This document shows positions 33,301 to 50,476 of a DNA stretch of 64,000 nt, piece by piece; within the stretch, counting starts at the first letter, position 1; the number at the start of each line of letters is the position of its first letter. Both the position numbers and the translations under genes were made by a program. The DNA lies in the NCBI GenBank assembly GCA_016182485.1, contig JACPGH010000007.1, positions 27,656-91,655 of the forward strand, given 5' to 3'. A model generated the notes under the pieces. It did no database searches. It was not told the origin of the DNA and saw only the letters and a program-made list of their open reading frames with translations. The stretch is from Candidatus Kaiserbacteria bacterium. Its GTDB lineage: Bacteria > Patescibacteriota > Minisyncoccia > Phycocordibacterales > Phycocordibacteraceae.

Positions 33301-36300
33301 CGGCGTGCCGATGTCCTGTGTGCCGTCAAGCGCTTCGATGTTGCCCGTGATGATGTTGGAGCCGATGCGGAGCGTCCCGCCAGCGGCGACGATGTCGTGA
33401 TTGCCCGTACCGGTGAAGGTGAGGCCCGATCCGGCGCCGTCTATCGTCACGCCGCCGTTCAAGAGCGACGCGCCGTTGACCGAGAACTTTGACGATGGGG
33501 TTGAAGTCCCTATGCCGACGTTGCCATCCGAGTCGATGATGAAAGGAGTGGAATCGGGAGAAGCAGTATCCTCTACGACAAAGGAAGGGAAACTATTATC
33601 GCCATTGGTCACGCTCAACTTCCCCCATGGAGTCGTTGTGCCAACACCGGCCGCCGATTTGCTTCGAGTGAGTGATAGAACCGTATTAACAACACCTCCC
33701 AGGGCCCGCTCGATATGCAGGTCTCCGCCGTTTGTATCCACTGCGGTCGTCGAGACGCGGAATCCCCAGGTCTGACGACCGCCGGTGAGCGAATCGCCCA
33801 AAGTAAGCACTTGATTAGAGCCAGCCGTGTCACCTCCCGAGGTAAGGATATTCAGCGCGCCAAGTGGAGCCTGTGTCCCTATTCCCACCCTCCCATTCGC
33901 GAGTACGGTCACGAGCGTGCTCGTCGAAGTGCCGGCAGTCGTAGACGCGATAGTGAAGAGCGGCGTGTCTACAGCCGTCGACGCAGAATTTGAGATCGAC
34001 AGGAGGGAGTAGGGAGAAGTCGTCCCGATGCCGACATTTCCTGCCGTATCGATGCGCATGCGCTCGAGATTGTTCGTGCCGAAGACGACAGGGTTATTCG
34101 AGGTAGCGCCGAAAGCGACTATGCCGCCCGCATCGGCCATATTTCCCTTGAACAATACGGAGTTGTTAAGTTGTAGCGCACCGAATAGATTCCCCGTCTG
34201 CGTCGTGCCATACACATCGACCGCGCCATAGGAGTTCCCGTCGTTTTGAATAGAGACTTGGGTCCTGCTATTGGGATCCGCCCCGGTTATCGCCACCTGC
34301 GTCTGCCCACTACCCGAACCGAGGATATCCAGCAATCTTGTGGGTACAGCTTTGCCGATACCGATCTTGCCGTTCGCGAGCACGGTCATGAGGGTCGAAG
34401 TCGAGGTGCCGCCGGTGGTCGAGGCGATGGTGAACAAGGGCGTGTTGACCGTTGTTTGTTGGCTGTTTGAAATTGAGAGAAGCGAATATGGAGAAGTGGT
34501 CCCGATACCGACGTTTACGGCGTTCGCGCCCGTGCCTCCCAGCACGAGAGAGTTGCTCGCGCCGACGATTGCGTTCGCGCCGATAGCCGTAGCGTTTGTC
34601 AAAGTACTCGAAGCCGCATCGGCCAAGTGGCCCAAGAACGTATTGTAGGTTCCTGTTGTGTTAGTCCAGCCTGCATAAGTCCCGAAGGCTGCGTTATTAC
34701 TACCAGTGGTGTTGTAGCGTAAAGAACGATATCCATAACCAGCGTTGAAGTTACCGGTCGTATTTACCGAGGCGGCTTGATAGCCCGCTACGGTGTTGTA
34801 ATCGCCAGTCGTGTTTGCATCTAACACAAGACTGCCAAGGGCCGTGTTGTAGCTGCCGGTCGTATTGGCGGTGAGAACCTGCAAACCGAGCGCCGTATTG
34901 TGCCTGCCCGTCGTATTTACTGGCAGAGTGTATCCGCCTATTGCCGTGTTGTAATCGCCCGTCGTGTTCGCATTGAGCGCGAGATTGCCGATCGCGGTGT
35001 TATATAGCCCGGTAGTGTTAGCGGTCAGCGTGTTCGCGCCGATGCCCGTGTTCTGCGTCCCGGTCATCGTGAAGTTGCCCGCGTCGAGGCCGAGGAATGT
35101 GTTGTCCGTGCCGTAATTGTGGAGGAAGCGCATCGAGTTGACGTATACGCCGCCGGCCGTCGCGGTCGAAGAGGCGAGGACGAGATTGCCGCTAAACGTA
35201 GTCCCGCCTGTGATAGTGAGCCGGCCGAAGGTGGCCTCCGCCGCCGCGACCGAGATGCCGTTCGTGAGCGTGCTCCTGTCGAAAGTCCCGCCGCCGAAGG
35301 TGCCGTTATTGATGGTCAGATTATCGAGCTTTTCGATTCTCGCCACTTGCTGAATGGTCGTGATATTGGTCGCGGTCTGTCGCGAGATTGGCGAGAGCAT
35401 GCCGCCGACGGTGGAGAGAATGTCGTTTTTGAGCGCATTGAGCGAGAGCGTAACGTAGTCCTGTGTGACGCCCTCGACGACGGTGGTGTAGAAGTTGGAG
35501 GCTGGTTGCTGGAGGCTGGTTACTGGAATGATGTAGGCGCTAGCCGGAGCGGAGGCGACAACCGGGGTGGAGCTTGCCGTGCCCTTCGTAGCCTTTGTCG
35601 CAGGCTTAGGCGAAGTAGGGGAGCTTGCCGTGCCCTTCGTAGCCTTTGTCGCAGGCTTAGGCGAAGTAGGGCTATATACGATGACGGGCGCTGGTGCGGG
35701 GTTCAAAAGATACGCGAGGCCGCTCGCCCCGTTAGAAATCAGATTTCTAACGGGGCTGGTCGCAGAGTCCCAAAAATTGTTGATCGCTCGGTAGGTCGTA
35801 AGCGCGACTTTTTCTCCGGCCGAGAGCTGGGAGATGACGGCGGCGACGGGAGTGCCTTCGCGGTTCATATTTTCAAGAAGAGCAGGACCCTTGCCGCGCG
35901 TCGCCTCGTACGCGCCGACGATGGTTCTGCCGACCGCGCTGAATATCTGCGGGTCATTCACCATCTCGCTGAACCTTCGAGGAGCGAGTGTGAGCGGCTG
36001 GGCGGCTGCGACACCCGCATACGCGAGGTCCCCGGTCCCGGTAACGAGGGCGAGATATCGGTCGGAAGCGAAGGCGGTCGCGCCGACGAAGCGGTGCGCG
36101 AGCGCGTACTCGGCGTCGAATACCGCCTGAGCGATTCTCGGCCCTGCTTCGCTCACGCTACGCAGGGCGAGCCCGGCTTTTTCTGGCGTTTTGATAGTAG
36201 CGGCGACAGTCGCCCGCGCGAGCAGATCGCCTGTATTCCCGACGAGCGCCACGGTGGCGCGCCCTGCTTCGTTAAAACTACGCAGGGCAAGAGCGCTTAC

Positions 36301-37398
36301 TTCAGGTGCGGCAGTGGCGGGTACATACGCGAGCGAGACGTCCGCCTGGATCGCCGCATGCGTGAGATCGATGACTGCATTGCCGAACGCGAGATTCACG
36401 CGATTGACGAAGGATGGGGAAGCGGCCAGCGCATCGCGCGCCGTCGCCGCGAAAGCGAGCGCTTCTCTCCCCGAGACATCGAGGAGCGATCGATACGTCG
36501 AAAATATTTTCTCGACCGCGCCGTACGAGTTCTCGCCAAGCGCGAGGTACTGCTCTTTGCCGACGCGCGCCACGTTTGCGGGCGCATGCAGGATAGCGCC
36601 TCGCATGCGCTCCGGAGAAGAGAGGAACGCGAATGTCTCGAGGATACTGTCCTCGAGAAGCTGGGCTTCGCTCGCAGACAATTCACGCGAAGTAATAGGA
36701 GAAGTGCCGCGCCCGCCGCTCGCCCCGTTAGAAATCAGATTTCTAACTGGGCGGGCATCAAGCTTCAGTACGAACAGTGGCGAAAGAGAGATGTCCTTAA
36801 TCTCTGACGTCGCATATGTCCTATGTGCATCCTCTGATTTGGTCGTATTCCTAAAGGACGCCGATTTACGCTGGTTCAGATCCGCGGATATCCTCTGATA
36901 TGGATCCGCGCTAATCTCCCGGAAGCCGAAAGCGACGACGCGCGCGAACGAACCGAGAGCGCGTGCTGCCTGCGGAATGATCGGGGTCTGCGCGGCGAAA
37001 GCCGCTCCGGTTACCACGAACGCGGCTACCGAAAGCGCGGCGAGTTGAGAACGCCATCCGCTAAACGCAGATGATCGCAGATCTAAATCCGCGGATATCC
37101 GCTGATTCAATTTGGCGGAAATCCGCTTATACATCTGCGGAATCCGCGCAGCATGCCGGTGTGAGCGATATTCAGCTTCGCGCGCGCGCGCGAGCGCGCG
37201 CGAATAATCAGACTTACGCGCTTCCTGCCGGTCAAGGAAGCGGATAAGAGACTCTCTGCCGACGAACCAGCTGTGGCCGATCTTTTTTCCGGAAATTTTC
37301 CCGCTGCGGACTAGACGCGCGAGGTAATCGGAAGTATATCCGGACAGCTCTCCAGCATCCTTTGTCGTGATCAGATTTCCGTTAAGAGAAGGATCCAT
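18340..37398 (-). CDS. Giant (6352 aa) membrane-anchored fibre/adhesin-like protein: N-terminal cytoplasmic HTH_17 (MerR/excisionase-type) domain, one TM helix, ~6000-aa extracellular region with YadA-head-like NTAIG/NTTG repeats and dozens of phage-tail-fibre-like GNVGIGTTSP repeats, two tandem peptidase-S74-like intramolecular chaperone domains, and C-terminal DUF5011-like Ig domains
   Basis: Uninterrupted 19,059-nt ORF. N-terminal motif ITTKDAGELSGYTSDYLARLVRSGKISGKKIGHSWFV. TM segment WRSQLAALSVAAFVVTGAAFAA. ggactcgtcgtcccgatgccgacgttgcc (GNVGIGTTSP on the minus strand) recurs throughout. CSASDERLKQDI…FYW…GLIAQQV…MILAIQEL matches the S74 autoproteolytic chaperone. PPIVTLNGEAAMQISEGQTFTDPGATATDETDGDLT…TDAAGN matches DUF5011. 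Confidence 0.8.
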   Translation of the reverse strand: MDPSLNGNLITTKDAGELSGYTSDYLARLVRSGKISGKKIGHSWFVGRESLIRFLDRQEARKSDYSRALARAREAEYRSHRHAARIPQMYKRISAKLNQRISADLDLRSSAFSGWRSQLAALSVAAFVVTGAAFAAQTPIIPQAARALGSFARVVAFGFREISADPYQRISADLNQRKSASFRNTTKSEDAHRTYATSEIKDISLSPLFVLKLDARPVRNLISNGASGGRGTSPITSRELSASEAQLLEDSILETFAFLSSPERMRGAILHAPANVARVGKEQYLALGENSYGAVEKIFSTYRSLLDVSGREALAFAATARDALAASPSFVNRVNLAFGNAVIDLTHAAIQADVSLAYVPATAAPEVSALALRSFNEAGRATVALVGNTGDLLARATVAATIKTPEKAGLALRSVSEAGPRIAQAVFDAEYALAHRFVGATAFASDRYLALVTGTGDLAYAGVAAAQPLTLAPRRFSEMVNDPQIFSAVGRTIVGAYEATRGKGPALLENMNREGTPVAAVISQLSAGEKVALTTYRAINNFWDSATSPVRNLISNGASGLAYLLNPAPAPVIVYSPTSPKPATKATKGTASSPTSPKPATKATKGTASSTPVVASAPASAYIIPVTSLQQPASNFYTTVVEGVTQDYVTLSLNALKNDILSTVGGMLSPISRQTATNITTIQQVARIEKLDNLTINNGTFGGGTFDRSTLTNGISVAAAEATFGRLTITGGTTFSGNLVLASSTATAGGVYVNSMRFLHNYGTDNTFLGLDAGNFTMTGTQNTGIGANTLTANTTGLYNTAIGNLALNANTTGDYNTAIGGYTLPVNTTGRHNTALGLQVLTANTTGSYNTALGSLVLDANTTGDYNTVAGYQAASVNTTGNFNAGYGYRSLRYNTTGSNNAAFGTYAGWTNTTGTYNTFLGHLADAASSTLTNATAIGANAIVGASNSLVLGGTGANAVNVGIGTTSPYSLLSISNSQQTTVNTPLFTIASTTGGTSTSTLMTVLANGKIGIGKAVPTRLLDILGSGSGQTQVAITGADPNSRTQVSIQNDGNSYGAVDVYGTTQTGNLFGALQLNNSVLFKGNMADAGGIVAFGATSNNPVVFGTNNLERMRIDTAGNVGIGTTSPYSLLSISNSASTAVDTPLFTIASTTAGTSTSTLVTVLANGRVGIGTQAPLGALNILTSGGDTAGSNQVLTLGDSLTGGRQTWGFRVSTTAVDTNGGDLHIERALGGVVNTVLSLTRSKSAAGVGTTTPWGKLSVTNGDNSFPSFVVEDTASPDSTPFIIDSDGNVGIGTSTPSSKFSVNGASLLNGGVTIDGAGSGLTFTGTGNHDIVAAGGTLRIGSNIITGNIEALDGTQDIGTPSVRFDKIYANEVSAVTVVGTIVGGNVQAETLTVNSDNTSADQESAYLVFARGSSSPNAQLAWNAATSSKRFEFNQPLYIQDASLTSATSTLFVQGWSGQTSDLFRIASSSDTVTPYLTVTSAGNVGIGTTTPAEQLEITGNFRLPVTTTAVGQIKMGDNRWIDSYGTGNLMIGTNGAPAGNTTLTGTYNIGIGGDLVLSSITTGTSNIAIGRYGLKSLTTGNNNSVLGYLAGASLTTASNNVAIGTSALNSNVTTDGLTALGAYALADTTGVENTGLGLQAGYHISTGAYNTAVGSNAIGGAIVTGDFNTAVGRSAMSANTSGASNIGIGVNVLLSNTTGSYNIAMGQSALQTATSSSNQVAIGYQALLNMITGPSNDTEGNVALGYNAGNAITYGGGNILLGYQAGDALTTGSRNIILGYDIDAPAVTSSNILNIGNLIYGTGIDGTGTTLSSGNVGIGTTSPSGKLTVEAASGVVNSAESAGTLVLRSSDAAAIDKGPQLRFSGFGGGATGALAFATIAGRMESNPNAGYLQFSTTQTDSTIAERMRITSTGNVGIGTAGPNYKLDIATASSNTQIRFGSDGTNSGGFLISTADSQGNIAGGMSWNGSSYVARSTMASQVENYLGNIRFFTNSGLTAGNSFTPTERMRIDTSGNVGIGTASPGSGIATALTTSLHIGPGSGTNPGIVLQDNSNSKKHILRIIDDAFWISADDGSIQRTDIAIKSDTGNVGIGTTSPAALLSVHGNSYVSGTGFFGGAITGTSTLAVGTSTLTNLIVTNTSTSTLTGGLVAGTNVRASLPSDPTWYTEISAENSGSYLKTAGYSVLNLRVGATNVMALNGSSNTLAGNLGLSTSKILGVDNIAYIDLYNPSTGNIHITNTSASATYGNILFETGASATEQMRITNSGNVGIGTTSPYAKLSVVGETVSQYFTATSTTATSTFAGGLSAGNAGLLVMQNGAVQIGGSDRFDFTPGPTSIFTINNPNSNSIGINLNTGDSQSAFVNFSRSSAVKWGLGLPYSASDNFVISKGNAPAEDSSAVFTILSSNNNVGIGTTSPNNNLQVVSGAAGSAPLAITNTSDNYTVRVTSSGALPYWQFTNAAVSAVVNAGIDASSLNLGRGNVQIIGSDTPTASTIPARLYVVGDGTNPAAIFNTGNIGIGTTTPSARLDIVPTTVPSQTYAPIMILESRLANGYSEQGGYIGFRQVDVGNNVVTNDAARIVAVHDNFQAEQGDTGLSFWTTPANLSVAERVRISSTGNVGIGTTTPGVLLDVVKNSTSDNGTIFPTVRVRNLSTSDKSYAQFQVDVAGGGVTSYWQGEGVGTGKLGTPGAFIGTYTNHPFAFVTNDSEKMRLTAGGNLGIGETAPGSKLSVSGGATIGASYDTTVAPTNGLIVEGNVGIGTTSPYSLLSISNSAGTTVNTPLFTIASTTAGNSTSTLMTVLANGNVGIGTAAPGYTLDVTKSEPGNYVANFYNSNTTNGSHGMYVNVAQGSNTNALVVATEGTPRLTVNSTGVVSGGNFTTTSGYIGYDVNHNLNWTGSAYRLLSNADPITFVGAYELMRITAAGLVGIGSTTPWGQLSASSTSAYPTLAIEQKSTGPAAVFLGGNVGIGTTSPASLFSVHGNGLFSGNITAANITATGTLTAANISTTGYLSTSNAAVGGDDWYISAGDSGHLGFFKDSTAVSTNGKMVLTTGGLLGVGGGLNTATVPAEELEVYSSSGVTAIRITGDSNQGAPELQFNMRNGVANQAKIVGSSGESHNSPELQFYVNTGADSTNTLVQRMTINDLGKVGIGTTSPYSLLSISNSAGTTANTPLFTIASTTGGTSTSTLMTVLANGRVGIGTAGPSTLFDIVSNSSATSTIRQFLTSDAGPALQLIHARGTASAPSATCGVDCSSDTLGQIDFMGYDGSAYQTGARIIAEAAGNGSWSPGGLGTSLVFYGVDTNTSSLAERMRFQPNSTVEFFGLGASGLSLTGSQMIVSSSFRFGYGGTTQDGYVPATGPDGWGMISSTGSFRVNLDADNDNTGQAFVIGHHQTDGDATNNVLMVVNDSGNVGIGTTTPNWLLQAAGTRPSFALSDSSAGANLKHWLFSSMGGNLYVGTSTDAYGTSTPAALTITNAGNVGIGKAIPNFLAEFSRSDTTSTRSGNISAEIAVVNDLPGTNYGPGAGIRFLAPTGGVTPTPSVGRILGTFGGNCYGNDCSLLVFQTTTGANVFSDAMIISGTEVSIGTPTINPAVPLEVVGSVAPSSVGAAGILQLYRGVNDGVSYPNIAEFALGRYQVGDTNPYSRLDINLKSSGSFDKTGDVTVMTLQANGNVGIGTTSPGALLSISGGPASILFNRPNNSHDGGLTLDSNGAALWKVGFIGGLTSNNFYIRDGKDDKTLLAFAAAGLDNAISVSATQVAIASTLYANGSGNVGIGTTSPAALTSIGGDLFVGASTAGGTNGKLGIGVANPVQIIHAVGSTPYIRLDDSASSPAGKIVYFGNNAGRIILGTDAGTSGRKFSIGYNAPDDSMFIADSTGNVGIGTTSPLNLLHIATSGDDMTFGGNAGANVAGNLYYSSGWKYIEAAGGAAIGINDNNRAGDIGFYTAPSGAVGSAATLSARMYIQEGGNVGIGTTSPDALLNIQNYGGGQGLNSQFIVNSGYAAGPGSISMSVVNSGNVFLGFDVDEVAAAMVARGTAASMLRELNGELLFTGDTGLTMNSAFTPTTRMTLDLSNGKFGIGSTTPWGQLSASSTSAYPTLAIEQKSTGPAAVFLGGNVGIGVTNPTSKLVVAGSTSASPNDYVAVFRTIDDAANRPIIRIENSAQSELARWDYNGYLTAPGFYATSNYVLSVAPGNIIIASQSGSTLQMGDVNGKAQKLSLYSNGVESLTIDTSGNVGIGTTSPWGVLSVTNAGSGPSFVVEDTESPDATPFTIDAGGSVGIGVSNPALSLQVNGAAGVPANSGTTATGRVRFSGTDNIAMDFGALNTSPWSAWIQVHDSTDQSVNYPLSLQTNGGNVGIGTTNPGATLQVGTNVLTVSATTSNVGIGTVSPLATLHVAGDIFQPYSQQIRSGLDNTSIYGYLELYNTSTGNLTLQAHSANNRSALINPNGGNVGIGTTSPWADLHVRDTAQSAGITDTPDSWLNALFERAWGSSSAAGIAIVGSSKSTGGNGVVYLGNSDDWDNTALSGGNDVFKLYVGATIPFITAQGTGSGDGKLSIATTSANQVLTLYQPANDVAIELSALAGPTYKWTMGMDYSDGGKFKIASSSALGTDDRFVIDGNGNVGIGTTSPESRLAVAQPSAISSTFDLATLDANTNVTNASGVTQRGLVLKMPTFTMNNAPATLTGARIETGSPGQFDQGGDVATVRGIEITSGNWLGNTGGFTWRGVQITTPTMRKDHSGGNAQESYGIDITTGATTGSGTNGINTGLRITGGSQSNAGIQRGLHINMADASHAALIVQTGNVGIGTTTPGVLLDVYKSSNLVSRFDSGSHNYLRLNRGAVTNNNELEFQTNGTTNWAMGLGDDSENKFYITTNNAVPSDGAKLTITTAGNVGIGTTSPVGHLEIANTTTNNTRLILRGTTGNGAVLINGTDLTTAQEWFKIDAFGRASFDEQAQSTAETPAVNISNLTGYGIFGSSYLGFTTNASEKMRITSGGNVGIGTTSPYSILSISNAAGTAVNTPLFTIASTTAGTSTSTLMTVLANGNVGIGAAAPGGKLSVAGNIFFGDESHYLSTDNSTYAMLSSNRDVQLSISGNPKLTVQASTGNVGIGTTTPTNTLTVSGTRVAGSLTSVAKIGTSGFGGQTGDAIGLLFSDTATGGYDFARIQTRAPGGSNMALDFGVWDGSTISNYMTIIKNGNVGIGTTSPQSKLHVTGGFSGITPLAGTVLTVENSGSNYLSLLAPNANEQALLFGSPNNVADGGVFYSPNGLSRGMSFRTGGNATQMVINSTGNVGIGTTTPLSILQTTTGGDNYFVMDNKNYATSEGIWRLHVGNTTDFFSIEQNTAAVRDFSTSYTPFFIGGVSGGYNQRVGIGTTTPGSKLSIAGGVSVGTNYGAAAPTNGMIIEGNVGIGTTSPGTLLSLGDTGANTINISATATSTFGSGIDIRTGCFAINGVCVGGGSGTGTVGSGTAGQFPYYAGTGTTLTATSSLYVATNERVGIASSTPFAKFAVENTSAALSFAVNDQAGDPTPFVIDDSGDVGIGTASPGGQSERFSIVTTAGSASAMTIYNGSDPNYIGEFGIDASTGNLIITSRLVGSGVQPIYMSASAIGLGTTTPATLLEVGGETANVTFDGYKNCTGFTSNGNGLLACSASDERLKQDISPLATASGLSAIDALRPVSFYWDPAAERSSQKQFGLIAQQVREVFPDLVQTSAPTSLTPDGTLSINYDGLAAPMILAIQELSTTSTRLAGRVGTLENEITALTGGYFGFSYEGSISARNEPVTAPIIANWVYASSTPASIVENLQKPAEGIEPSEIEVTGSFPHQAAGLFTVYGNVAADSFVASTSVWTSNLAVTNEGYINRLTAQEVSATSFVNTSTRALKTDINYMSASSTEAVLGKVRGLKVATYRYAAEAGSNPLRLGLIAEDARETAPEILSIDGNGVDLYKLATLTLAGVQTLAEKVDRAEVRLTSLEARLAALESGAVSSASGSPVSFSTTSLASAFNAFGAYIAKGIAQFGTLVADQFVAATNSAGTSSAGTVKIIAGNTVAEVQNAYVKPSTKIFVTFTASTTGSWYIAEKKDGSFRLVLESPQAGDTSFDYFLIQTEGQMATSTPESQISNSQFSISNSNTSTQWITVLGDNPYLIEVGGNFVDPGIDAGGAPVTTYINGVESEVGPGTIDTSSETTYIITYRVLGPNGSIMATRSVIVGNGSVVAGTTSQESQVTSQESSATPESEVISPDSDSQPPIVTLNGEAAMQISEGQTFTDPGATATDETDGDLTAKIATSGSADTATAGSYTLTYSATDAAGNTGSVSRLVTVIEPLSAATETSTTPQ
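18548..18570. repeat. Fifth copy of the REP palindrome (tgtgaaggtctgaccttcac), lying in frame inside the C-terminal DUF5011-like domain of the giant gene
   Basis: Identical 19-bp palindrome to the REPtron flanks. Encodes SEGQTFT. Confidence 0.7.
35567..35690. repeat. Perfect ~62-bp tandem duplication inside the giant gene (encodes SPTSPKPATKATKGTASS x2)
   Basis: ggagcttgccgtgcccttcgtagcctttgtcgcaggcttaggcgaagtaggg appears twice in succession. Confidence 0.85.
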
Positions 37399-37839
37399 GT
37401 CGGATAACCGAATTAACTAAATAATAGCTCGTCATTTCGGCAAAAAAATACCTACAAAAAAATTGTGTGGATAATGCGCTGACCTGCGCTTCAGATGAAC
37501 CGCTGAGACGGGGCCATTTTCGATCGAAACGTACGCATTTCTCACCCATTTTTTCAAAATCGTCCCGCAAAACCAGAAATCGGACGCTCCAAAGCGGAAT
37601 AGGCCACGCAAAGCCGGCCCAAGCGCATGTCAAAGCTCACGGAAACCTGTGTAAATTAGCTTTGAGAGCGGCATATTCGCGGTCCAGAGACGTCCATAAT
37701 TGATATTCTGAAATCACCCCAGACTTATGCGCGACATATACCGCTTATTTTTTAGATATTTCGGGCAAGCGACCTGGCTCACAACCGAATAGCAGTGATC
37801 GATGAATGGCGCTATTTACGCATTGTAAAAATAAATTCA

Positions 37840-37960
37840 GCCACTGCGCACAATATGAGATTGCATATATTGTGCGCACACATGCTTATCTCATAGAATA
37901 GATCTCCCTCAAGGAGATGAAATGCACAATATATATAGTATGTGACCTATACTTTCCCTT
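37840..37960. promoter_or_regulatory. AT-rich upstream region of the giant gene with operator-like inverted repeats (GCGCACAATAT / ATATTGTGCGC half-sites x3; hairpin atctccctcaaggagat)
   Basis: gcgcacaatatgagattgcatatattgtgcgc palindrome at 37845-37878, a further half-site gcacaatatatat at 37923-37935, and TATA-like hexamers. Confidence 0.4.
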
Positions 37961-38021
37961 TTTGGCACATTTTTCACTTTTATTTGTCAGGCAGTTTTAG
38001 ACGAGACAAGAAAGCATTGTA

Positions 38022-38795
38022 CTATCTGTCTATTTCATAGACTACTACCCCTGCCATGAGCGAGGCTCGTTTATCCGATTCTATATATTTATCGAAATAT
38101 CCAGTGCCAAGTATCGCCAGGGCCATAGTACACACGGCAACTAAAGCTCCAGACAGATATATCGCAGAGACCATCCTCTTTCCTCTGCTTTTAGGCTGAT
38201 CGTCTCCTTTATCCTCTGCTTCCTTCGGGAAATCCGGCAGCAGCTCCTTAGGAGGATGCCGGTATATGGCGCGGATTGGTATGTCTACCGATTCTTCGCT
38301 CTTCTCTCCGGGTCCTTCCACGCGTTCCGCGCGCTCTTCAGGCTCGAAATTGGCCTTCTCTATTTCGTTGGACGCTGTAATTGGGGTCGTAGCTATGCTT
38401 GCAACCTGCTCAAACCATGATTTCCAAGTCTCTGCCATATTCAATGGCGCAGATTCCGCGGAATTGTTCTCATCCGCGGATATCCGCTGATTTGAATCGG
38501 CGGTTATCAGCTCCTCCAGAGGAGCAGGCCCGTAGCGTGGAGATTCCCAGGCAGAAGAGACAAAAGATCGTGACTCATGGCTCTTTCCCCTCTTAGGCTC
38601 CTGTTTGGGAGTCTCCTCGCCGAAGCGATGATCGCGGACCGCAGTCTCAAGAACATACCAATTCCGACCTACTAGCCTGGCAGGCAGACGCCCTTCTCGG
38701 CACAGCTGCCCTATGTAATCCTTCGCATACCCGGTTACCTTCGCAGCTTGTTTTGACGATATGTACTTCTTGTCTTCGATAAGCAGCTCGTCCAT
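38022..38795 (-). CDS. Small paralogue of the giant protein's N-terminus: HTH_17-type DNA-binding domain + RISAD repeat region + C-terminal TM anchor (257 aa)
   Basis: KYISSKQAAKVTGYAKDYIGQLCREGRLPARLVGRNWYV aligns with the giant N-terminus. Shared palindromic DNA motif atccgcggatatccgctgat. C-terminal hydrophobic helix. Confidence 0.6.
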   Translation of the reverse strand: MDELLIEDKKYISSKQAAKVTGYAKDYIGQLCREGRLPARLVGRNWYVLETAVRDHRFGEETPKQEPKRGKSHESRSFVSSAWESPRYGPAPLEELITADSNQRISADENNSAESAPLNMAETWKSWFEQVASIATTPITASNEIEKANFEPEERAERVEGPGEKSEESVDIPIRAIYRHPPKELLPDFPKEAEDKGDDQPKSRGKRMVSAIYLSGALVAVCTMALAILGTGYFDKYIESDKRASLMAGVVVYEIDR

Positions 38796-38847: not shown

Positions 38848-40347
38848 CTATCCTATTCGTTCCCGTAGCAACTTTTGCAGTTCTTGAGGATTGCCCGCTC
38901 CGCGGCTCTCCCGCATAGCCTGCCCGACCAGGTACTGAAGGGAGGCCTGTTTGCCGCCTCTGTACTCCTCAACCGCCTTCTGCTCGCGGGCAATTACGGA
39001 ATCAACTATGGCGCCGAGCGCAGTCGCATCGTGCACTTGGATAAGATCGTGCTCCTTCGCGATAATTTCCGGATCTTCATTACCGCCGCCTTCTACTAAA
39101 AGCGCGAGCGTATCCTTCGCGCCGCGGGAAGAGAGCGACTGGGCTTTCACCAGCTTGATGAGTTTTGCGAATGCATTTGGATCCAGTGATTCGTAATCTT
39201 CATTCCCTTTCTTTGCGTATATACCGGCAAGATCTGAAACTATGTAATTTGCCGCCAGACGAACATTATCCGAATCATTTGAAAGCGCGGCTGCGACGGC
39301 GTCGAAGAAGGCCGCCCGCTCGAGAGTGCCTGAGACATATGCGATATCGTTCTCCTTAAGCGCATAGTCTCTCGCGTACCGCTCGCGCCGGAGCCAGGGC
39401 AGCTCGGGCAGCGACGCGCGTATCGCTTCAGTCCCGAATTCCGGAATCTCAGAAATAAGCAGCTTGGGCAGATCGGGTTCCGGAAAATACCTATAGTCGG
39501 CGCTCCCCTCTTTAAACCGCTGGTGGAAGGTCTCCTGTTTTTCTTCGTTCCAGCCGCGCGTCTCCTGCACCACCTTCCCTCCTTCTTGGAGCAGTTTCGT
39601 CTGCCGCTTGATCTCAAAATCAATCGCCCGCTCCACTGACCTAAACGAATTCAGGTTTTTTATTTCGACCTTTGTTCCCAGTTTTGAATTTTGGTCATTG
39701 GTGCTTGTTTGGTTCTTGAGATTTGGTTCTTGGGATTTAGCCACGCTGACGTTCGCCTCGATGCGCATCTCGCCTTTTTCCAGATTCGCTTCGCTGGCGC
39801 CGAGAGTGCGCAAGAGAAGCTGCAGTTCGCGCGCGAAGCGGCCGGCAGTCGAAGCATCGGGGATGACCGGCTCCGTTACTAGCTCCATGAGCGGGATGCC
39901 CGCGCGATTGAAATCGACGAGACTCCTTCCTGCAGTCCGTTCGCTGCGCTCAGGATCTCCGGCTTCGCCTGCGACGTGAATAGAGCGGGCGGTATCTTCT
40001 TCGAGATGCACGCGCGTCAATTCCACTCCAACAAGAGAGCCGCCGACAACAAGCGGGTTGGCATACTGACTGATCTGATACCCCTTCGGAATATCCGGGT
40101 AAAAATAGGACTTGCGATCGAATTCGCTGTAGTCCGCGAGCGCGCCGCCGAGCGCGGTGCCGACACGCAGGATATGCCGCACCGCCTCCCGATTCGCTAC
40201 CGGCAGAGTCCCGGGGTGAGCGAGACAAATGGGACATATATTGACGTTCGGCCGCGTCTCGTCCGGATCGTTCGCGCAGGAGCAGAACATCTTGGTCCGG
40301 GTCTTGAGCTCGGCGTGGATCTCGAGACCGATGGTAGGACGATACAT
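38848..40347 (-). CDS. gatB: Asp-tRNA(Asn)/Glu-tRNA(Gln) amidotransferase subunit B
   Basis: MYRPTIGLEIHAELKTRTKMFCSC…, GatB/YqeY C-terminal domain. Start set at the conserved N-terminus; the upstream extension is repeat read-through. Contains an in-frame family-2 repeat insert at 39655-39765. Confidence 0.85.
   Translation of the reverse strand: MYRPTIGLEIHAELKTRTKMFCSCANDPDETRPNVNICPICLAHPGTLPVANREAVRHILRVGTALGGALADYSEFDRKSYFYPDIPKGYQISQYANPLVVGGSLVGVELTRVHLEEDTARSIHVAGEAGDPERSERTAGRSLVDFNRAGIPLMELVTEPVIPDASTAGRFARELQLLLRTLGASEANLEKGEMRIEANVSVAKSQEPNLKNQTSTNDQNSKLGTKVEIKNLNSFRSVERAIDFEIKRQTKLLQEGGKVVQETRGWNEEKQETFHQRFKEGSADYRYFPEPDLPKLLISEIPEFGTEAIRASLPELPWLRRERYARDYALKENDIAYVSGTLERAAFFDAVAAALSNDSDNVRLAANYIVSDLAGIYAKKGNEDYESLDPNAFAKLIKLVKAQSLSSRGAKDTLALLVEGGGNEDPEIIAKEHDLIQVHDATALGAIVDSVIAREQKAVEEYRGGKQASLQYLVGQAMRESRGAGNPQELQKLLRERIG
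39655..39765. repeat. Family-2 AT-rich repeat (ttggtcattggtgcttgtttggttcttgagatttggttcttgggattt) inserted in frame in gatB
   Basis: Identical motifs to the intergenic copies at 40375-40535 and 41932-41995. Encodes …KSQEPNLKNQTSTNDQNSKLGTKVEIKNL…. Confidence 0.7.
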
Positions 40348-40374
40348 ATGCGAAAGATACTTCATAAAGCACCA

Positions 40375-40535
40375 AATCTCAAATCGCAAGATCCAAGATG
40401 AGTGCCCAAGAACCAACCTCTAAGAACCAAACAAAAACCAATGTCCAAAGGACCAATGTTTTATTTTTGAAGATTGGTGCTTGAAATTTGTTTGGTACTT
40501 GGGGTTTGGTGCTTGGAATTTAGTATTTTTGAGAG
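40375..40535. repeat. Family-2 AT-rich imperfect-palindrome element (arms caagaacca… / …ttggtgcttgg), complete copy between gatB and obg
   Basis: Left arm ccaagaaccaacctctaagaaccaaacaaaaaccaatg and right arm cattggtc…ttggtgcttgaaatttgtttggtacttggggtttggtgcttgg are roughly reverse-complementary. Confidence 0.7.
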
Positions 40536-41571: not shown

Positions 41572-41931
41572 TCAGGATACCTTATTGATGATTGCAGTAA
41601 GTATGAGCATGATTTCCCGCGCCTCGGATCTCAAGCGATGGCATTCCGCTATTCCATTTTCATTTGACTCTAGCAAGGAAAGCCAAAAGGCACTTTCCTT
41701 TGCTTCTTTTCGAGATATCCGCAATCTCATAACGAAGTCCTTCTTCCCGAGCGCCTCATTTCCTTCAATATAATTTGCCCCAATGGCTCCGGATGAGCGA
41801 ACTAATTGCTTAGCATCTTCATTGTTTTGTATGGTTTTCGGTAATCTGGAAACAAGCTTTCGTACGTCTTGAGCAAAAATCAGCGTCCTTTCTTCAAGAT
41901 TAAAACGTTTGCTCTTTTGAACATTGGTCAT
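41572..41931 (-). CDS. Four-helix-bundle protein (second paralogue; PF05635/TIGR02436 family)
   Basis: 119 aa. SSGAIGANYIEGNEA…KDFVMRLRISRKEAKESAFWL. Sits between the left and right arms of a family-2 element. Confidence 0.75.
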   Translation of the reverse strand: MTNVQKSKRFNLEERTLIFAQDVRKLVSRLPKTIQNNEDAKQLVRSSGAIGANYIEGNEALGKKDFVMRLRISRKEAKESAFWLSLLESNENGIAECHRLRSEAREIMLILTAIINKVS

Positions 41932-44474
41932 TGAGATTTGTTTGGTTCTTGCGATTTGTGATTTGGTACTTCAATAATACTCCATCCGTCGGCGAGGAAC
42001 GGTTCGGCTTTTTTATATTTTATCGTCTTCGTTTCGTCGCCTTTTTTGATGGTAACAAAATCGTTCCGGCCGTAGGATTGCTTGTTTACGATCGGCTGAG
42101 ACCCGGAGTCTTCCGAGCCGGCGGCTATGAGTTGCGCCCGGATCTTCGCTTCTTCCGCCCTGATGCGCGCCTCGTCCCGCGGCAGGATGTGCGGAACCAT
42201 CTCGGCGATGGTGGCACGGATATTTTCTTCGAGCTGACGGAAGCGCGCGAGCCCTTCGCGCCGATACTCGATGAGAGGATCCCGCTGGCCATACGCGCGC
42301 AAGGACACCGAGCGGCGCAGATAATCCATCGCCTCTAGATGCTCGAGCCAGAAAGTGTCGATTACCTGCAGAAGGAGTCTCCGGAGGGTCGCTCCGAACG
42401 CCTCGCCTAGCTCGGCCTTCCTGGCTTCGAATGTCTCGAGGGTCTGCGCAGGCGCGCCCGCGAGCATCTCCCGGACGATCTCTTCCACTTCGGCGTTACT
42501 CCCGAGAAGCGCGGTCCGGCGGCGAGCATAGATCGCGAGCCGCTGGGTATTCATCACGTCGTCGTAGGCGAGCACCTGCTTGCGCGCGTCGAAGTTGAAG
42601 CCCTCGATGCGCTCCTGCGCCGTCTCGAGCGACCGCGTTATCATCGCGCTCTCTATCGGCTCGTCCTCGGGAATGCCGAAGCGGCCCATCACCTTCTTCA
42701 GGGTCTCAGACGCGAACACGCGCATCAGCTTGTCTTCCAGAGATACGTAAAATCTCGTTTCGCCGGGATCGCCTTGGCGGCCGGAGCGGCCGCGCAGCTG
42801 ATTGTCGATGCGGCGCGCGTCATGCCGCTCCGTGCCGATGACCACCAACCCTCCCTTTAAGAGAACGGAGGCGCGCTCGTCCGCAGTGGCGCGCGCGCCG
42901 CCGAGCTTGATGTCGACGCCTCGGCCGGCGAGGTTGGTCGCCACCGTCACCCTCCCCTCCTTCCCCGCCTCCGCAATGATCTCGCCTTCGCGTTCGTGAT
43001 TCTTAGCGTTCAGCAACTCGTGCGGCACTCCCGCCTCGGCGAGATACCCGCTCACCAGCTCGTTGTCCTCGATCGATACGGTGCCGACGAGGATCGGCTG
43101 GCCTTTCTCATGCCGTTCCTTCACGGCTTTCGCCACCGCGCGGTATTTCCCGGCCGCCGTCTGGAATATGAGGTCGTCGTGATCCTTGCGCGCGACCGGC
43201 TTGTTAGTCGGGATGGCTACGACCTCGAGCCCGTAGACTGTATAAAATTCTTCCTCGGAAGAGAGGGCCGTGCCCGTCATGCCCGCGAGCCGCGCATACA
43301 TACGGAACAGATTTTGGAACGTCACGGTCGCGTACGTCCGCGTTTCTTCTTTCACTGCGGCGCCTTCTTTCGCCTCGATCGCTTGATGCAGGCCCTCCGA
43401 CCAGCGGCGGCCGGGCTGGAGCCTGCCGGTAAACTCGTCGACGATGACTATCTCGCCGCCCTGTACCACATATTCCTTATCCTTATGGAAAAGCGCCTTG
43501 GCGCGCACGGCCGTCTCAAGATGGTGCGCGTACTTCACCCCGCCCTCGGTATATAAGTTCTCGAGGCCGAGCGCCGCTTCGGCTTTTTTCATTCCCGCGT
43601 CCGTCACTTGGATCGCCTTCTGCTTCTCGTCCACCGTGTAATCCTCTCCCTCCCGCATGTGCTCGACGATGCCGGCGAACCGCTCGTAGAGCATCTGCGA
43701 ATCTCCCGCGGGCCCCGAGATGATAAGCGGAGTGCGCGCTTCGTCGATCAAGATCGAGTCTACCTCGTCGATGATCGCGTAATGGAAGCCGCTCTGCCGC
43801 TGGACTATCTGCGGCATTTCATACGCGGTATTGTCGCGCAGGTAATCGAATCCCAATTCGTTGTTCGTCACGTAGGTGATGTCCGCGGCGTACGCCTCCT
43901 GCTTGGACACCGGCCGCAGATAATCGTAAAAGACGAGATACGCCCCGGCTACATCGCGCGCCTCGTCCTCCTGCTTCTCCGTATGCGATGCGTCATATCG
44001 AAAGGCGCCGGAACTCGTCACCACGCCCACCGAAAGGCCGAGATAATCGTAGATCTGTCCCATCCAGGCCGCATCGCGCCGCGCGAGATAGTCGTTCACC
44101 GTGATGATGTGCACGCCTTTGCCGGAGAGCGCATGGAACGTGGCCGGTAGAGTCGCGACCAGCGTCTTCCCTTCTCCGGTGCGCATCTCGGCGATCTTCC
44201 CCTGCGCGAGCGCGAGCCCTCCCGCGAGCTGGACATCGAAATGGAACTGCCCGAGGGTACGGCGCGCCGCTTCGCGCACGAGAGCAAATACAAGCGGCAA
44301 GTCCTCCTCCCGAGCGGCTTCGCCCTTGAGCGCCGCGAGCCTCCCGGAAAGCGCCTCTTTCGGCAGTCCCGTAAGCTCGCCCTCGAGCGCATTCACCCTC
44401 TCGATGGCCGGCGCCGCCGCTTTGAGAAATGCGGCGGATTGATCCTTAGAGAATAAGCGCGAAAGCCCTAACAT
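41928..44474 (-). CDS. secA: Preprotein translocase ATPase SecA
   Basis: MLGLSRLFSKDQSAAFLKAAAPAIERVNALE… N-terminus, DEAD-like motor domains, GTERHDARRIDNQLRGRSGRQGDPG. Start set at the conserved Met; the upstream 100-codon ORF extension is not supported. Confidence 0.85.
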   Translation of the reverse strand: MLGLSRLFSKDQSAAFLKAAAPAIERVNALEGELTGLPKEALSGRLAALKGEAAREEDLPLVFALVREAARRTLGQFHFDVQLAGGLALAQGKIAEMRTGEGKTLVATLPATFHALSGKGVHIITVNDYLARRDAAWMGQIYDYLGLSVGVVTSSGAFRYDASHTEKQEDEARDVAGAYLVFYDYLRPVSKQEAYAADITYVTNNELGFDYLRDNTAYEMPQIVQRQSGFHYAIIDEVDSILIDEARTPLIISGPAGDSQMLYERFAGIVEHMREGEDYTVDEKQKAIQVTDAGMKKAEAALGLENLYTEGGVKYAHHLETAVRAKALFHKDKEYVVQGGEIVIVDEFTGRLQPGRRWSEGLHQAIEAKEGAAVKEETRTYATVTFQNLFRMYARLAGMTGTALSSEEEFYTVYGLEVVAIPTNKPVARKDHDDLIFQTAAGKYRAVAKAVKERHEKGQPILVGTVSIEDNELVSGYLAEAGVPHELLNAKNHEREGEIIAEAGKEGRVTVATNLAGRGVDIKLGGARATADERASVLLKGGLVVIGTERHDARRIDNQLRGRSGRQGDPGETRFYVSLEDKLMRVFASETLKKVMGRFGIPEDEPIESAMITRSLETAQERIEGFNFDARKQVLAYDDVMNTQRLAIYARRRTALLGSNAEVEEIVREMLAGAPAQTLETFEARKAELGEAFGATLRRLLLQVIDTFWLEHLEAMDYLRRSVSLRAYGQRDPLIEYRREGLARFRQLEENIRATIAEMVPHILPRDEARIRAEEAKIRAQLIAAGSEDSGSQPIVNKQSYGRNDFVTIKKGDETKTIKYKKAEPFLADGWSIIEVPNHKSQEPNKSQ
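41932..41995. repeat. Family-2 element, right-arm type (ttggttctt repeats)
   Basis: cattggtcattgagatttgtttggttcttgcgatttgtgatttggtacttc. Confidence 0.65.
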
Positions 44475-44600
44475 TGGGCCATCATACCCCGTATGACTAC
44501 TTTTCGCGATATTGCATATTGGTAAAAGTACGTACAGCCAGCGCGTGGAGGCATACATAGAAAACAGGCGCGGCATCGGCGAGTTGTCATACGGGGCATA

Positions 44601-44636
44601 ACAGAAAATCGCGTCCTCCGGGACGCGATTTTCTGT
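44601..44636 (-). promoter_or_regulatory. Perfect 16-bp stem hairpin (acagaaaatcgcgtcc-tccg-ggacgcgattttctgt) in the secA leader
   Basis: Lies ~125 nt upstream of the secA start and directly downstream of a 15-codon Lys-rich mini-ORF (44651-44698). Confidence 0.35.
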
Positions 44637-44936
44637 ATCGAGGCTGATACTATTTGCGCTTCTTCGATGCCTTTTTCTTTGCCTTCTTCTTTGCCATGGT
44701 GGTTGCAATTTAGAATAACGGCTGATATGTCGACCCGTCTGCGCATTCGCCAGCTGGCGAAAAATTTTCCGCAAACGTTTCTACTCACTAGTATCGCGCA
44801 TTAAAAATATTTTTTGGGTTAATTTTTGCGCGACCTGTGGATAAACTCGCGTCAAAAAATTTCTCCGCAAAAAAATTTTCTCTAAAAGTTTTGAAAATCT
44901 TCTTGTTTCTCCCGCTTGCCCAGTAGGAAATGCCTT

Positions 44937-49207: not shown

Positions 49208-50476
49208 ATGCAGGCGGTTAAAAACACGCTAGTAAAGATCCTGCGCGCAAGCGAGCGCTACACCCATCTCGACATGGTGTATGTGGCTCATGGTAGTTTT
49301 TGGGTCCTGTTCGGACAGGTTGCCTCGAACTTACTCTCCCTCGTCCTTGTCATCGCGTTCGCGAACTTGCTTCCTAAAGAGACGTACGGCTTGTACCAGT
49401 ACATCCTGTCGCTTGCCGGCATCCTGAACATTTTCACGCTCACCGGCATGAATACGGCCGTCGCGCGCGCGGTAGCGGCCGGCGAGGAGGGCGCGTTCCG
49501 TACCTCGGTAAGCTACCAGCTAAAGTGGAATCTACTTCAATTCCTGGCGTTCTTAGGGCTCGGCGCGTATTACTTTTACAACGGCAATACGGCGATCGCT
49601 CTCTCGTTCCTGATTTTCAGCCTCGCCTCGCCGCTCTCGCAGGCCTTCAACACTTACAGCGCATATCTCTACGGTAAGAAAGAGATCCGGCTATCGAATA
49701 TTCTCGGCGTCCTTACGACCGCGGCTTACGTGCTCGGCATGCTGGCCGTCATCCTTATCGGCGGCGAGATCATATGGATGGTGGCCGCCTATGCGCTCAT
49801 CACGCTCATGGCGAACTTGGCATTCTATATATATACGCTGCGAGCCTTCGCCCCCTCTCGCGGGACAGACGCCCGGGAGACTTTGCGGTACGGACGGGAA
49901 CTCACCTTTATAAGCATTCTCGATCCTATCGTATCGCAGATAGATAAGATCATACTCACTCACTATTGGGGTAGCGCCCAGCTCGCCATGTATTCGCTCG
50001 CCACGGCGGCGCCCAGCCGGGCGACTACCCTTATAAAAAGCTGGGTCGGCCTCGCGCTCCCGAAATTTGCAGCCAAATCACCGGCAGAACTGAACTCAGT
50101 CTTTTACACCCGGATCTTCCAGGGACTCCTCCTCGGCGCGCTCTGCACCGCCGGATATTTTGTTCTCGCTCCGTACCTGTTCACGTTTCTTCTGCCAAAA
50201 TATCTGGATGCTTTGCAGTATTCGCAGATACTCTCGATAAGTTTCATCGTTGCGATACCGAACCGCTACATCAGCCAACTTTTGGCTTCCCAGAAATTAT
50301 CGAAGGTCATTTTCTCCAATAATTTAGTCCAGGTTACCATACGGATCGCCTCCTATGTAGGGTTCGGCATCTGGGGCGGCCTCATGGGCCTAGTGCTCGC
50401 ACAGGTGCTCAATTCATTCATTGGTCTCGCTGCCAATATAATCGTGTGGCGCAGCTGGAGCAGCAGAATCAACTGA
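49208..50476 (+). CDS. Polysaccharide flippase (Wzx-like, MOP superfamily)
   Basis: ~12 predicted TM helices. Position in the glycan locus. Confidence 0.6.
   Translation: MQAVKNTLVKILRASERYTHLDMVYVAHGSFWVLFGQVASNLLSLVLVIAFANLLPKETYGLYQYILSLAGILNIFTLTGMNTAVARAVAAGEEGAFRTSVSYQLKWNLLQFLAFLGLGAYYFYNGNTAIALSFLIFSLASPLSQAFNTYSAYLYGKKEIRLSNILGVLTTAAYVLGMLAVILIGGEIIWMVAAYALITLMANLAFYIYTLRAFAPSRGTDARETLRYGRELTFISILDPIVSQIDKIILTHYWGSAQLAMYSLATAAPSRATTLIKSWVGLALPKFAAKSPAELNSVFYTRIFQGLLLGALCTAGYFVLAPYLFTFLLPKYLDALQYSQILSISFIVAIPNRYISQLLASQKLSKVIFSNNLVQVTIRIASYVGFGIWGGLMGLVLAQVLNSFIGLAANIIVWRSWSSRIN

Follow-up and report, generated by a model that had tools for sequence, protein, structure and literature searches.

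Is the inverted repeat that lies ahead of a giant gene in a Kaiserbacteria genome an operator for the HTH domains encoded on either side of it, as an earlier note on this DNA had suggested, or is it an element of some other kind? In the window (the whole stretch of DNA that was analysed, 64 kb in length), the repeat is located in a long spacer between two genes on the minus strand, the second of which encodes a protein of 6,352 residues. A full-text search of the literature found nothing on this type of locus. The features that matter for the question are listed here from high to low coordinates.

38848-40416, minus strand: gatB
38022-38795, minus strand: HTH-TM gene, encoding 257 aa with an N-terminal winged HTH, a linker and a C-terminal transmembrane helix
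37399-38021: spacer, 623 bp, from the HTH-TM stop to the ATG of the giant ORF
38002-38011, minus strand: block A, TCTTGTCTCG in the window (consensus TCTCGTCTCG...CGAGAT hairpin), just past the HTH-TM stop
37924-37934, plus strand: third, partial half-site GCACAATATAT, with GCACAATAT at 37924-37932
37902-37918, minus strand: small terminator-like hairpin ATCTCC-TTGAG-GGAGAT plus a T-rich tail, between the HTH-TM gene and the palindrome
37845-37878, no strand: palindrome (block B), with arms at 37845-37856 and 37867-37878
37753-37772, minus strand: block C, a weak, degenerate copy TCGCTTGCCCGAAATATCTA of the consensus tTCGGATATCCGAyATATCTA
37644-37655, minus strand: block D, TTTACACAGGTT (consensus TTTcCACAGGTT), seen in an alignment of 12 spacers only
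37466-37474, minus strand: block E, TTATCCACA, which matches the DnaA-box consensus perfectly and ends 67 nt before the ATG
37399-37441, minus strand: block F, the leader GCCGAAAT-(loop AGTAAGTTATTATTTAGT)-TAATTCGG-nTATCCGAC, which runs to the ATG
18340-37398, minus strand: giant ORF, 6,352 aa

The setting is largely as the earlier note had described it. The long AT-rich spacer lies directly before the giant ORF, its 623 bp have a GC content of 42.5% (compared to 55% for the whole window), and it is the longest internal stretch of the window without ORFs of at least 110 codons. On the transcribed strand, the HTH-TM stop is followed by block A, the third half-site, the small hairpin, the palindrome, a distance of ~370-380 nt, a proximal block and the ATG. 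HTH domains are indeed encoded next door: both neighbours begin with paralogous HTH_17-like domains, which are the only two such domains in the 64 kb, one per side of the spacer. In the HTH-TM protein, the Pfam match covers residues 11-54 (coding positions 38634-38765), and the linker is long, acidic and of low confidence. This protein has 1,589 homologues, in which residues 1-59 are nearly invariant. The HTH_17-like domain of the giant protein covers residues 9-58 (coding positions 37225-37374), a hydrophobic stretch near residue 120 is read as a putative transmembrane segment, and the C-terminal part contains Peptidase_S74 and Ig-like surface domains. Identical contigs are present in four sequencing runs, SRR12113422/30/84/90.

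Two other roles for the spacer were rejected. The cumulative GC skew descends steadily across the locus and the genes on either side share the minus strand, which argues against a replication origin. A hidden small protein gene was sought by all-versus-all BLASTP of all stop-to-stop segments of at least 25 aa from 66 spacers, and only the last ~80 nt, which are conserved as DNA, were recovered; in the window, this part has an in-frame stop before the ATG.

The earlier note had described three half-sites, arranged as a 32-bp palindrome plus one downstream half-site. The inverted repeat is real. Its arms, TGCGCACAATAT (37845-37856) and ATATTGTGCGCA (37867-37878), consist of 12 nt each, are 100% complementary and have 10 nt between them, so that the palindrome measures 34 bp; the figure of 32 bp came from arms of 11 nt. 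It lies 143 nt past the HTH-TM stop and 447 nt before the giant ATG. The window contains eight perfect inverted repeats whose arms reach 12 nt or more and whose loops measure 3-20 nt, compared to 0.15 in Markov-1 simulations, and exact matches to GCGCACAATAT are found in the window only at the two arms of the palindrome. The 9-mer GCACAATAT occurs four times in the 64-kb window, where 0.54 occurrences would be expected, and three of the four are inside the spacer.

A third copy of the half-site is also present, as had been claimed, but it is neither downstream nor conserved. The partial half-site GCACAATATAT, which is complementary to 37865-37875, lies upstream of the palindrome in the direction of transcription. 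It has a T in place of the C that is invariant beside the core in 35 of 35 palindromes from related loci (see below), the half-site matrix does not recognise it, and no other species has a counterpart that reaches the threshold of the matrix. The third half-site is thus specific to this lineage, and a layout of palindrome plus downstream half-site is not conserved. It is probably an auxiliary site or a local duplication particular to the lineage.

A search of a genome collection with a profile of the HTH-TM protein yielded 80 loci, each in a different species. The arrangement of HTH-TM gene, spacer and a very long ORF that begins with an HTH domain is held in ~65 of these 80 loci, and the spacers are mostly 400-750 bp long. 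A blind search for the best inverted repeat of each spacer recovered the palindrome core in a dozen species. With pattern searches, we found 17 strict and 26 relaxed instances among 66 spacers (~40%); the start of the palindrome is located at +142 to +280 after the HTH-TM stop codon in these 26, and in the other species a median of 450 nt separates its end from the ATG. Proteins flanking the palindrome-bearing loci are only ~40% identical. The consensus of the palindrome is ttCGCA(C/A)AAT, a gap, and ATT(G/T)TGCGaa, and the gap between the 7-nt cores GCACAAT and ATTGTGC falls into two classes, of 9-10 or 13-14 nt. The copy in the window is fully symmetric and belongs to the 14-nt spacing class. 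From 70 half-sites we derived the half-site consensus TTCGCACAATGT, in which positions c3 and c5-c7 are at least 91% conserved.

A common genome-wide repeat, the outcome that the earlier note had named as contrary to its reading, is not what we found in the loci compared. The strict pattern GCA[CA]A[AT]T-N7-16-A[AT]T[GT]TGC has 18 matches in 685 kb of DNA (the 80 Kaiserbacteria/Paceibacteria loci plus the window), and all 18 fall within the equivalent spacer, which makes up 5.5% of that DNA. Similarly, the half-site matrix has 47 matches in 38 kb of spacers versus 4 in 541 kb elsewhere, the latter all single half-sites. This restriction to one syntenic position excludes chance. A dispersed repeat (REP- or MITE-like) was rejected as well, given that there is no other copy in the 64-kb window and that only the four half-sites occur outside the spacers in the 541 kb. 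The palindrome is therefore an existing, conserved and locus-specific element with the character of a sequence motif, and the comparison supports the view that it is a real element under selection at this locus.

Scans of wider sequence collections are in line with this. An exact-pattern scan of metagenomes with gaps of 9-14 nt returned at least 120 matches. Among the matches listed, 11 share the gene context, and all of these are spaced 9 or 14 nt, split 6:5; the 109 others listed have spacings spread across 9-14 nt. In the subset examined in detail, those other matches that are spaced 9 or 14 nt lie mostly within long ORFs, as chance background would. A scan of viral contigs gave six matches, none of them spaced 9 or 14 nt, which is chance-like.

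The palindrome is missing or unrecognisable in ~60% of the species that keep both HTH genes. Its bearers, both spacing classes and both orientations of an asymmetric form (described below) are scattered on a poorly resolved tree, which suggests an old element that has been repeatedly lost and changed. As a separate observation, species without the palindrome often carry other palindromes near that position, e.g. ATACCTA-TATA-TAGGTAT.

The palindrome is only one of at least six conserved blocks that are apparent in the alignment of 12 spacers. Block A occurs in 59 of 66 spacers, in nearly all cases at position +16 relative to the stop, and is terminator-like in 7 of the 26 palindrome-bearing spacers examined. 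Block C is found in 12 of 66 spacers and is located ~80-110 nt downstream of the palindrome in the clade with 14-nt spacing. Block E occurs as T[TA]ATCC[AC]CA in 59 of 66 spacers, and block F matches the strict pattern GCCGAAAT...TAATTCGGnTATCCGAC in at least 38 of 66, or ~58 species by alignment. Blocks E and F together (the last 76 nt, 37399-37474) are nearly identical in ~58 species, even though the flanking proteins are ~40% identical. Given this conservation, the core control region of the giant gene is most probably E plus F. The palindrome is an upstream element restricted to some clades. The stem of block F has 66 G.U versus 14 A.C pairs on the sense strand, an excess that we read as the signature of an RNA hairpin on the sense transcript and that would imply transcription of at least some of the spacer. 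The final 100 nt of the spacers are enriched in loose sigma-70-like matches, whose placement at the palindrome is inconsistent. The earlier note's placement of the element in the promoter region is not supported in the sense of a core promoter, as the palindrome is 447 nt from the ATG and a far more conserved block fills the last 76 nt.

We give a probability of roughly one half to the reading that the palindrome is a locus-specific, operator-like candidate protein-binding DNA site upstream of the giant gene, in which two inverted half-sites TTCGCA(C/A)AAT would be recognised by a protein in double-stranded DNA. A table of base pairs in 35 non-redundant palindrome instances bears on this reading. 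Positions f-1/c1 beside the core are invariant (C:G, G:C) in 35 of 35, and conservation is strong across the AT-rich core. At core position 4, 25 of the 35 instances have a mismatch (C:T in 21, A:G in 4) and 10 have C:G. One half-site is always GCACAAT, while its partner may be GCAAAAT, and this partner is found in either arm. The core mismatch in 25 of 35, the two spacings and the absence of T-tracts favour a protein-binding DNA site over an RNA hairpin or terminator. As far as the sequences indicate, the conserved property appears to be the half-site sequence TTCGCA[C/A]AAT and not hairpin stability.

The rival that survives best is an RNA hairpin, located in a long 5′ leader of the giant mRNA or in read-through from the HTH-TM gene, where it would be a processing, stabilisation or protein-binding site. 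The conserved stem sequence would then be read by an RNA-binding factor, and we consider the two propositions jointly to be possible but unlikely. Several patterns are of the kind expected of a stem. Flank position f-3 covaries (T:A in 22, G:C in 11) and f-4 is partly compensated, with symmetry fading past four flank positions. Longer arms occur, with 22 perfect base pairs in locus L071 and 16 bp in L019, and L174 folds to an 18-bp stem. The flank symmetry at f-3 and the long arms in L071 and L174 count against the operator reading, since a hairpin explains them more simply. In addition, variation in loop length would be harmless to a hairpin, the first loop position has 13 G.U (sense strand) versus 5 A.C, and the RNA signature of the downstream block F suggests that part of the spacer is transcribed.

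Other patterns count against a hairpin. The central mismatch would be C.U or A.G depending on the arm that is changed, and the asymmetric form exists in both orientations, even between sister taxa (L020 and L044). Within the 14-nt class, folding is weak for many members (z-scores of ~0 to -2), with z-scores near 0 corresponding to shuffled sequence, and the mean RNA folding energies of the two strands are alike (-11.74 versus -11.70 kcal/mol), i.e. there is no strand preference. Covariation in the 9-nt class is 0.166 versus 0.118 for shuffled alignments, but 11 of 500 shuffles were as high, so that it is not clearly above the controls; in this set, 84% of cells are paired and core pair 4 is unpaired in 11 of 18. 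Summed from f-4 to l2, G.U and A.C pairs are roughly balanced (~21 versus 14). In positions 37300-38100, searches with Rfam gave chance-level matches only (E up to 10), and no family reached its gathering score either there or in 16 related loci.

More doubtful than a hairpin is the proposal that the palindrome overlaps the promoter of a long leader or small RNA before block E, and is thus an operator at a promoter. The arms of the 14-nt class can be read as TTCGCA-17 nt-TATTTT, and three loci (L023, L026 and L045) passed a loose scan. The window has TGCGCA-17 nt-TACAAT after the palindrome, with TACAAT at 37822-37827 on the minus strand. The distance from palindrome to ATG, with its median of 450 nt, is fairly constant, and the stretch that leads from the palindrome to block E includes the conserved blocks C and D. 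On the other hand, the 9-nt class puts the same hexamers only 12 nt apart, a -10-like hexamer is found at no consistent distance in the species examined, neither a conserved terminator nor a conserved ORF is seen in that stretch, and a consensus scan for sigma-70-type promoters found none in the window's spacer. A sigma-70 promoter built from the arms themselves was rejected, as only the 14-nt class fits.

A role as intrinsic terminator of the HTH-TM gene is very improbable. The palindrome is indeed a perfect hairpin, located 143 nt past the stop and followed by an AT-rich stretch ~10 nt after the stem, and it shares a perfect intergenic stem-loop with intrinsic terminators and REP-like hairpins. 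Unlike these, it has a T-tract beside the stem in 0 of 26 instances, all of its copies are at one locus, its stem core is AT-rich, and its stem sequence is kept across very divergent species, which is not required of terminators. Moreover, terminator-like hairpins already exist between the stop and the palindrome (in L042, L049, the window and several copies of block A).

The least probable proposal, a recombination or architectural site (Xer/dif-like, or an att site bound by an excisionase) or else an element with no function, has in its favour that the neighbouring HTH resembles excisionases and that the arms distantly resemble the GCGCATAA arm of E. coli dif, but more than 60 species share the surrounding gene order, a Pfam scan of window ORFs revealed no recombinase domain, the 9-14 nt between cores contrast with the 6-8 bp of tyrosine recombinases, and conservation at one syntenic position excludes chance.

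Comparison with known systems places the palindrome among operators, without identifying it with any one of them. CIRCE, the operator of HrcA, has the consensus TTAGCACTC-N9-GAGTGCTAA and is found upstream of chaperone operons. It is nearest in layout, since both elements have inverted half-sites of ~9-10 bp that are ~9 bp apart and conserved in sequence over large phylogenetic distances, and both half-sites start with TT-GCAC. Unlike CIRCE, our element has two spacing classes and lies ~450 nt before the start codon of a giant surface-protein gene. An identification with CIRCE was rejected: the half-site TTCGCACAA shares only 6 of 9 positions with it, the usual form of the right arm is TTTTGCGAA, and neither groES nor dnaK follows downstream. 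As in a classical homodimeric HTH operator, there are two inverted conserved half-sites; unlike in such an operator, the half-site spacing is not fixed and its two classes are intermixed on the tree.

Other systems resemble the locus in the proteins involved. Xis and BldC occupy, as monomers, repeats that vary in number and spacing. RacA recognises short inverted repeats and attaches DNA to the cell envelope, with ‘ram’ sites anchoring the B. subtilis chromosome. The likeness to these systems lies in the fold of the adjacent HTH, and in a membrane-anchored HTH beside a spacing-tolerant palindrome that it is a candidate to bind. However, the sites of Xis and BldC consist of direct repeats that are AT-rich, and the ram sites of RacA are 14-bp palindromes, GC-rich and dispersed near the origin, whereas our palindrome is a single locus-specific inverted repeat of unrelated sequence. 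ToxR and CadC share with the locus a cytoplasmic, membrane-tethered DNA-binding domain encoded beside its presumed target. They differ in that their winged helices are of the OmpR type and that they have sensor domains in the periplasm; at our locus, the fold is excisionase/MerR-like, the HTH-TM protein is tail-anchored and exposes almost nothing to the outside, and its counterpart is a surface protein of 6,352 residues.

Three further matches to known elements were considered and rejected. The DnaA box has the 9-mer consensus TTATNCACA, with which the half-site (g/c)TTCGCACA agrees at only ~6 of 9 positions; the perfect match TTATCCACA is block E instead. The dif/Xer site has two 11-bp arms and a 6-8-bp centre, and occurs once per chromosome near the terminus; the centre of the 13-14-nt class is too long for it, and GC skew is unchanged at the locus. 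Finally, GCACAATAT resembles the NrdR box ACACwATAT, but the half-sites of the palindrome are separated and not abutting. The ribonucleotide reductase gene of the window (2615-4996) has no NrdR-like box, and the ORF adjacent to it encodes DUF192, not NrdR. The palindrome is thus a new motif of a familiar operator type; what is unusual is its setting between two membrane-anchored winged-helix genes.

Which proteins might bind it? An AF2 model of residues 1-67 of the HTH-TM protein (the HTH of the giant protein is not the one modelled) has a pLDDT of 83 and consists of two short strands, two helices, a beta-hairpin wing and a short helix. The full-length model of the 257-aa protein (pLDDT 57) was too poor for use. 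With Foldseek, the best match of the domain is 4j2n, Xis of mycobacteriophage Pukovnik (probability 0.99, rmsd 1.8 Å over 44 columns), and further matches are 6ama BldC (TM 0.70-0.72, target-normalised), 5i44 RacA, TraN and 8dgl RdfS; the E-values are weak (0.09-0.6) because the domain is small. Each of these proteins binds dsDNA, and several do so as monomers on variably arranged repeats. The model indicates that the N-terminal domain of HTH-TM is a winged helix of the excisionase/BldC/RacA type, a fold that binds dsDNA. Sequence profiles score below their curated cut-offs: PF12728 gives 26.1 bits for HTH-TM and 21 bits for the giant protein (cut-off 27), and TIGR01764 gives 21 and 15.4 bits, respectively (cut-off 28.8). 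PF12728 is listed for many HTH-TM homologues in precomputed Pfam annotation. A sequence search of the PDB found no relatives.

The two domains differ in how they vary among species. The HTH of the HTH-TM protein is nearly invariant in species with or without the palindrome, so a correlation between this domain and the presence of the palindrome is impossible, and its primary target is more likely a near-universal block (A, E or F). The HTH of the giant protein varies among species, including in an RSGK motif at the end of its second helix. The palindrome is present in 25 of 41 K-type (RSGK) species versus 0 of 13 others (Fisher p = 6.6e-5, a value confounded by shared ancestry), and all palindrome-bearing species with a readable giant HTH have the K in RSGK. 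This association hints at the giant protein's HTH as a candidate binder, and may also reflect shared ancestry.

On the operator reading, we infer that a protein binds the palindrome, which protein this would be and what the regulatory outcome would be. The palindrome would be the first conserved element downstream of the HTH-TM terminator region, and would head a ~620-bp, multi-block regulatory and leader region in control of the giant surface-protein gene. Between the two spacing classes there is a difference of 5 bp (half a helical turn), which counts against the reading in that a rigid homodimer could not fit both, and flexible or independent monomers are called for. The likeliest binders would be monomeric winged-helix modules on flexible tethers, tolerant of both spacings, and the two membrane-anchored excisionase/BldC/RacA-like HTH domains that flank the spacer are prime candidates. 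Between them, the giant protein's own N-terminal HTH may be a slightly better candidate, which would result in feedback control of the kind that the earlier note had envisaged as autoregulation. Two further points against an operator are that the palindrome lies ~370-380 nt upstream of block E, an unusual distance for a simple bacterial operator, and that ~60% of the species with both HTH genes have no recognisable copy of it.

A bolder version, which we regard as improbable, is that the spacer is bound by both membrane-tethered HTH domains, whether at the palindrome, at blocks A, C, E and F or at both, and that the control region is thereby kept at the membrane. If this were true, the 6,352-residue protein would act on its own gene in cis, through its N-terminus as this emerges. 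Either transcription would then be coupled with translation and membrane insertion, or a very costly gene would be under direct feedback, and the locus would include a locus-specific DNA-to-membrane tether conserved across Kaiserbacteria/Paceibacteria.

To our knowledge, gene regulation is almost unexplored in CPR/Patescibacteria, where the defined cis-regulatory motifs are few. The present analysis defines a testable motif, TTCGCA(C/A)AAT in inverted pairs, and describes an arrangement that is conserved in most of 80 species: a gene for a membrane-anchored HTH protein, a multi-block spacer and a giant gene led by an HTH domain. If the adjacent HTH domains do not bind the spacer, the palindrome still marks the target of another regulator. 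If they do, the locus would be a compact and experimentally tractable case in which membrane-tethered proteins control a giant adhesin-like gene, and this in organisms not yet easily grown.

The segment directly preceding the start codon of the giant gene, which encodes a 6,352-residue surface protein, is more striking than the palindrome, the GCACAAT-core inverted repeat lying further upstream in the same spacer. Across about 58 species (loci L005-L084), the ~76 nt that immediately precede the giant ATG (37399-37474, minus strand) are nearly identical, while the proteins flanking them are only ~40% identical. This block has the consensus cTTATCCACA-N12-25-gTAGG-N-tGCCGAAATAGTAAGTTATTATTTAGTTAATTCGGcTATCCGACATG and shows no visible Shine-Dalgarno sequence; Rfam holds no family matching it. 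The block also contains complementary segments, GCCGAAAT and AATTCGGC, which can pair around a highly conserved loop of 18 nt. On the sense strand, the stem has 66 G.U pairs versus 14 A.C pairs, and this strand bias indicates that GCCGAAAT/AATTCGGC form a leader hairpin on the transcript.

The DnaA-box consensus is TTATCCACA, with TATCCACA as its core. This core occurs three times in the window, where 0.7 occurrences are expected, and each of the three copies precedes an ORF start by 60-75 nt. The copies, together with a one-mismatch version of the motif, are:

5070-5077, minus strand: TATCCACA, non-coding, upstream of the class II ribonucleotide reductase ORF
37466-37473, minus strand: TATCCACA, non-coding, upstream of the giant gene
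44836-44843, minus strand: TATCCACA, non-coding, upstream of the secA ORF as listed
1747-1755: one-mismatch copy of the DnaA-box-like motif, upstream of ORF 985-1695

The TATCCACA sites may define a small regulon, whether of DnaA type or another. Some genomes additionally carry a second paralogue of the HTH-TM gene, whose first copy lies upstream of the spacer and encodes an N-terminal HTH and a C-terminal transmembrane helix (L016 and L022, both from the MAG SRP178908_co1_146, and L024, L031, L043 and L078). Downstream of this second paralogue come a short spacer (~200-240 nt) and, in place of a giant gene, an ORF of ~230-270 aa. The motif TTATCC[AC]CA precedes this ORF in L024, L043 and L078, and the palindrome is absent from these loci.

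Among the spacers upstream of giant genes, those of species without the GCACAAT palindrome frequently contain an alternative palindrome family, (GC)ATACCTA-TATA-TAGGTAT(GC), at a similar position (L061 +225; L081 +245; L068 +127; L070 +151; L052 +279). Half-motifs related to it adjoin the GCACAAT palindrome, downstream or upstream, in L071, L083 and L049. The presence of the palindrome is further associated with the residue that follows RSG in the HTH of the giant protein, which in the window reads RLVRSGKI at residues ~30-36. Each of the 25 palindrome-bearing species with readable sequence has K at this position, and E, D or V occur only in species lacking the palindrome (palindrome in 0/13; Fisher p = 6.6e-5 over loci L005-L084, a statistic that ignores phylogeny).

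At the other end of the spacer, a hairpin of conserved sequence, ATCTCGTCTCG-tata-GACGAGAT (block A, 38002-38011), follows the HTH-TM stop codon at a nearly fixed offset of +16 nt. It is present there in 59 of 66 related spacers and scores as terminator-like in some species only. The 10-bp palindrome CGGATATCCG, with one mismatch allowed, has nine matches in the window, five of which fall within 1.6 kb:

36885-36894, 37092-37101, 37116-37125, 37401-37410 and 38477-38486: CGGATATCCG cluster

Three CGGATATCCG copies have a repeat of ~20 nt in common, ATCAGCGGATATCCGCGGAT, whose translation is the peptide NQRISAD. This peptide occurs once in the HTH-TM protein, and residues ~99-185 of the giant protein contain NQRISAD and several RISAD-like copies; the QRISAD insert is absent from homologues of the 257-aa HTH-TM protein. 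The core TCGGnTATCCGA recurs immediately upstream of the giant ATG and, in relatives, within block C, downstream of the palindrome. The ATCAGCGGATATCCGCGGAT/NQRISAD repeat may belong to either the DNA level or the peptide level.

Besides the palindrome, the window contains seven more perfect inverted repeats with arms of 13-16 nt, versus 0.15 expected (starts 854, 1758, 5339, 10057, 35726, 44601 and 52243). Those at 10057 (recG), 35726 (giant gene), 5339 (DUF192 gene) and 52243 (ORF 50469-52325) lie within long ORFs.

In the C-terminal part of the giant ORF (18343-23898), Pfam identifies a Peptidase_S74 domain at about residues 5668-5725, the intramolecular chaperone of endosialidases that is typical of phage tail fibres. 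An Ig-like surface domain lies at the very C-terminus, and Pfam gives no family match over about 4,500 residues in between. Elsewhere, among glycosyltransferase genes, lies one (58913-59503) whose 196-aa product has a PaaX/Cas2-like domain; Pfam scans of neighbouring ORFs revealed no CRISPR-associated domain.

Between secA and obg, 41572-41931 encodes a 23S rRNA intervening-sequence protein (PF05635). The secA ORF as listed (41928-44774) has a TTG start, and no Pfam domain begins in it before residue 111, so the real start may lie ~300 nt downstream. Two features are relevant to this region:

44836-44844: TTATCCACA, upstream of the listed secA start
44601-44636: 16-bp perfect hairpin inside the listed secA ORF, near its start

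If secA does start ~300 nt downstream, the window would contain a second long leader, with both TTATCCACA and the 16-bp hairpin.
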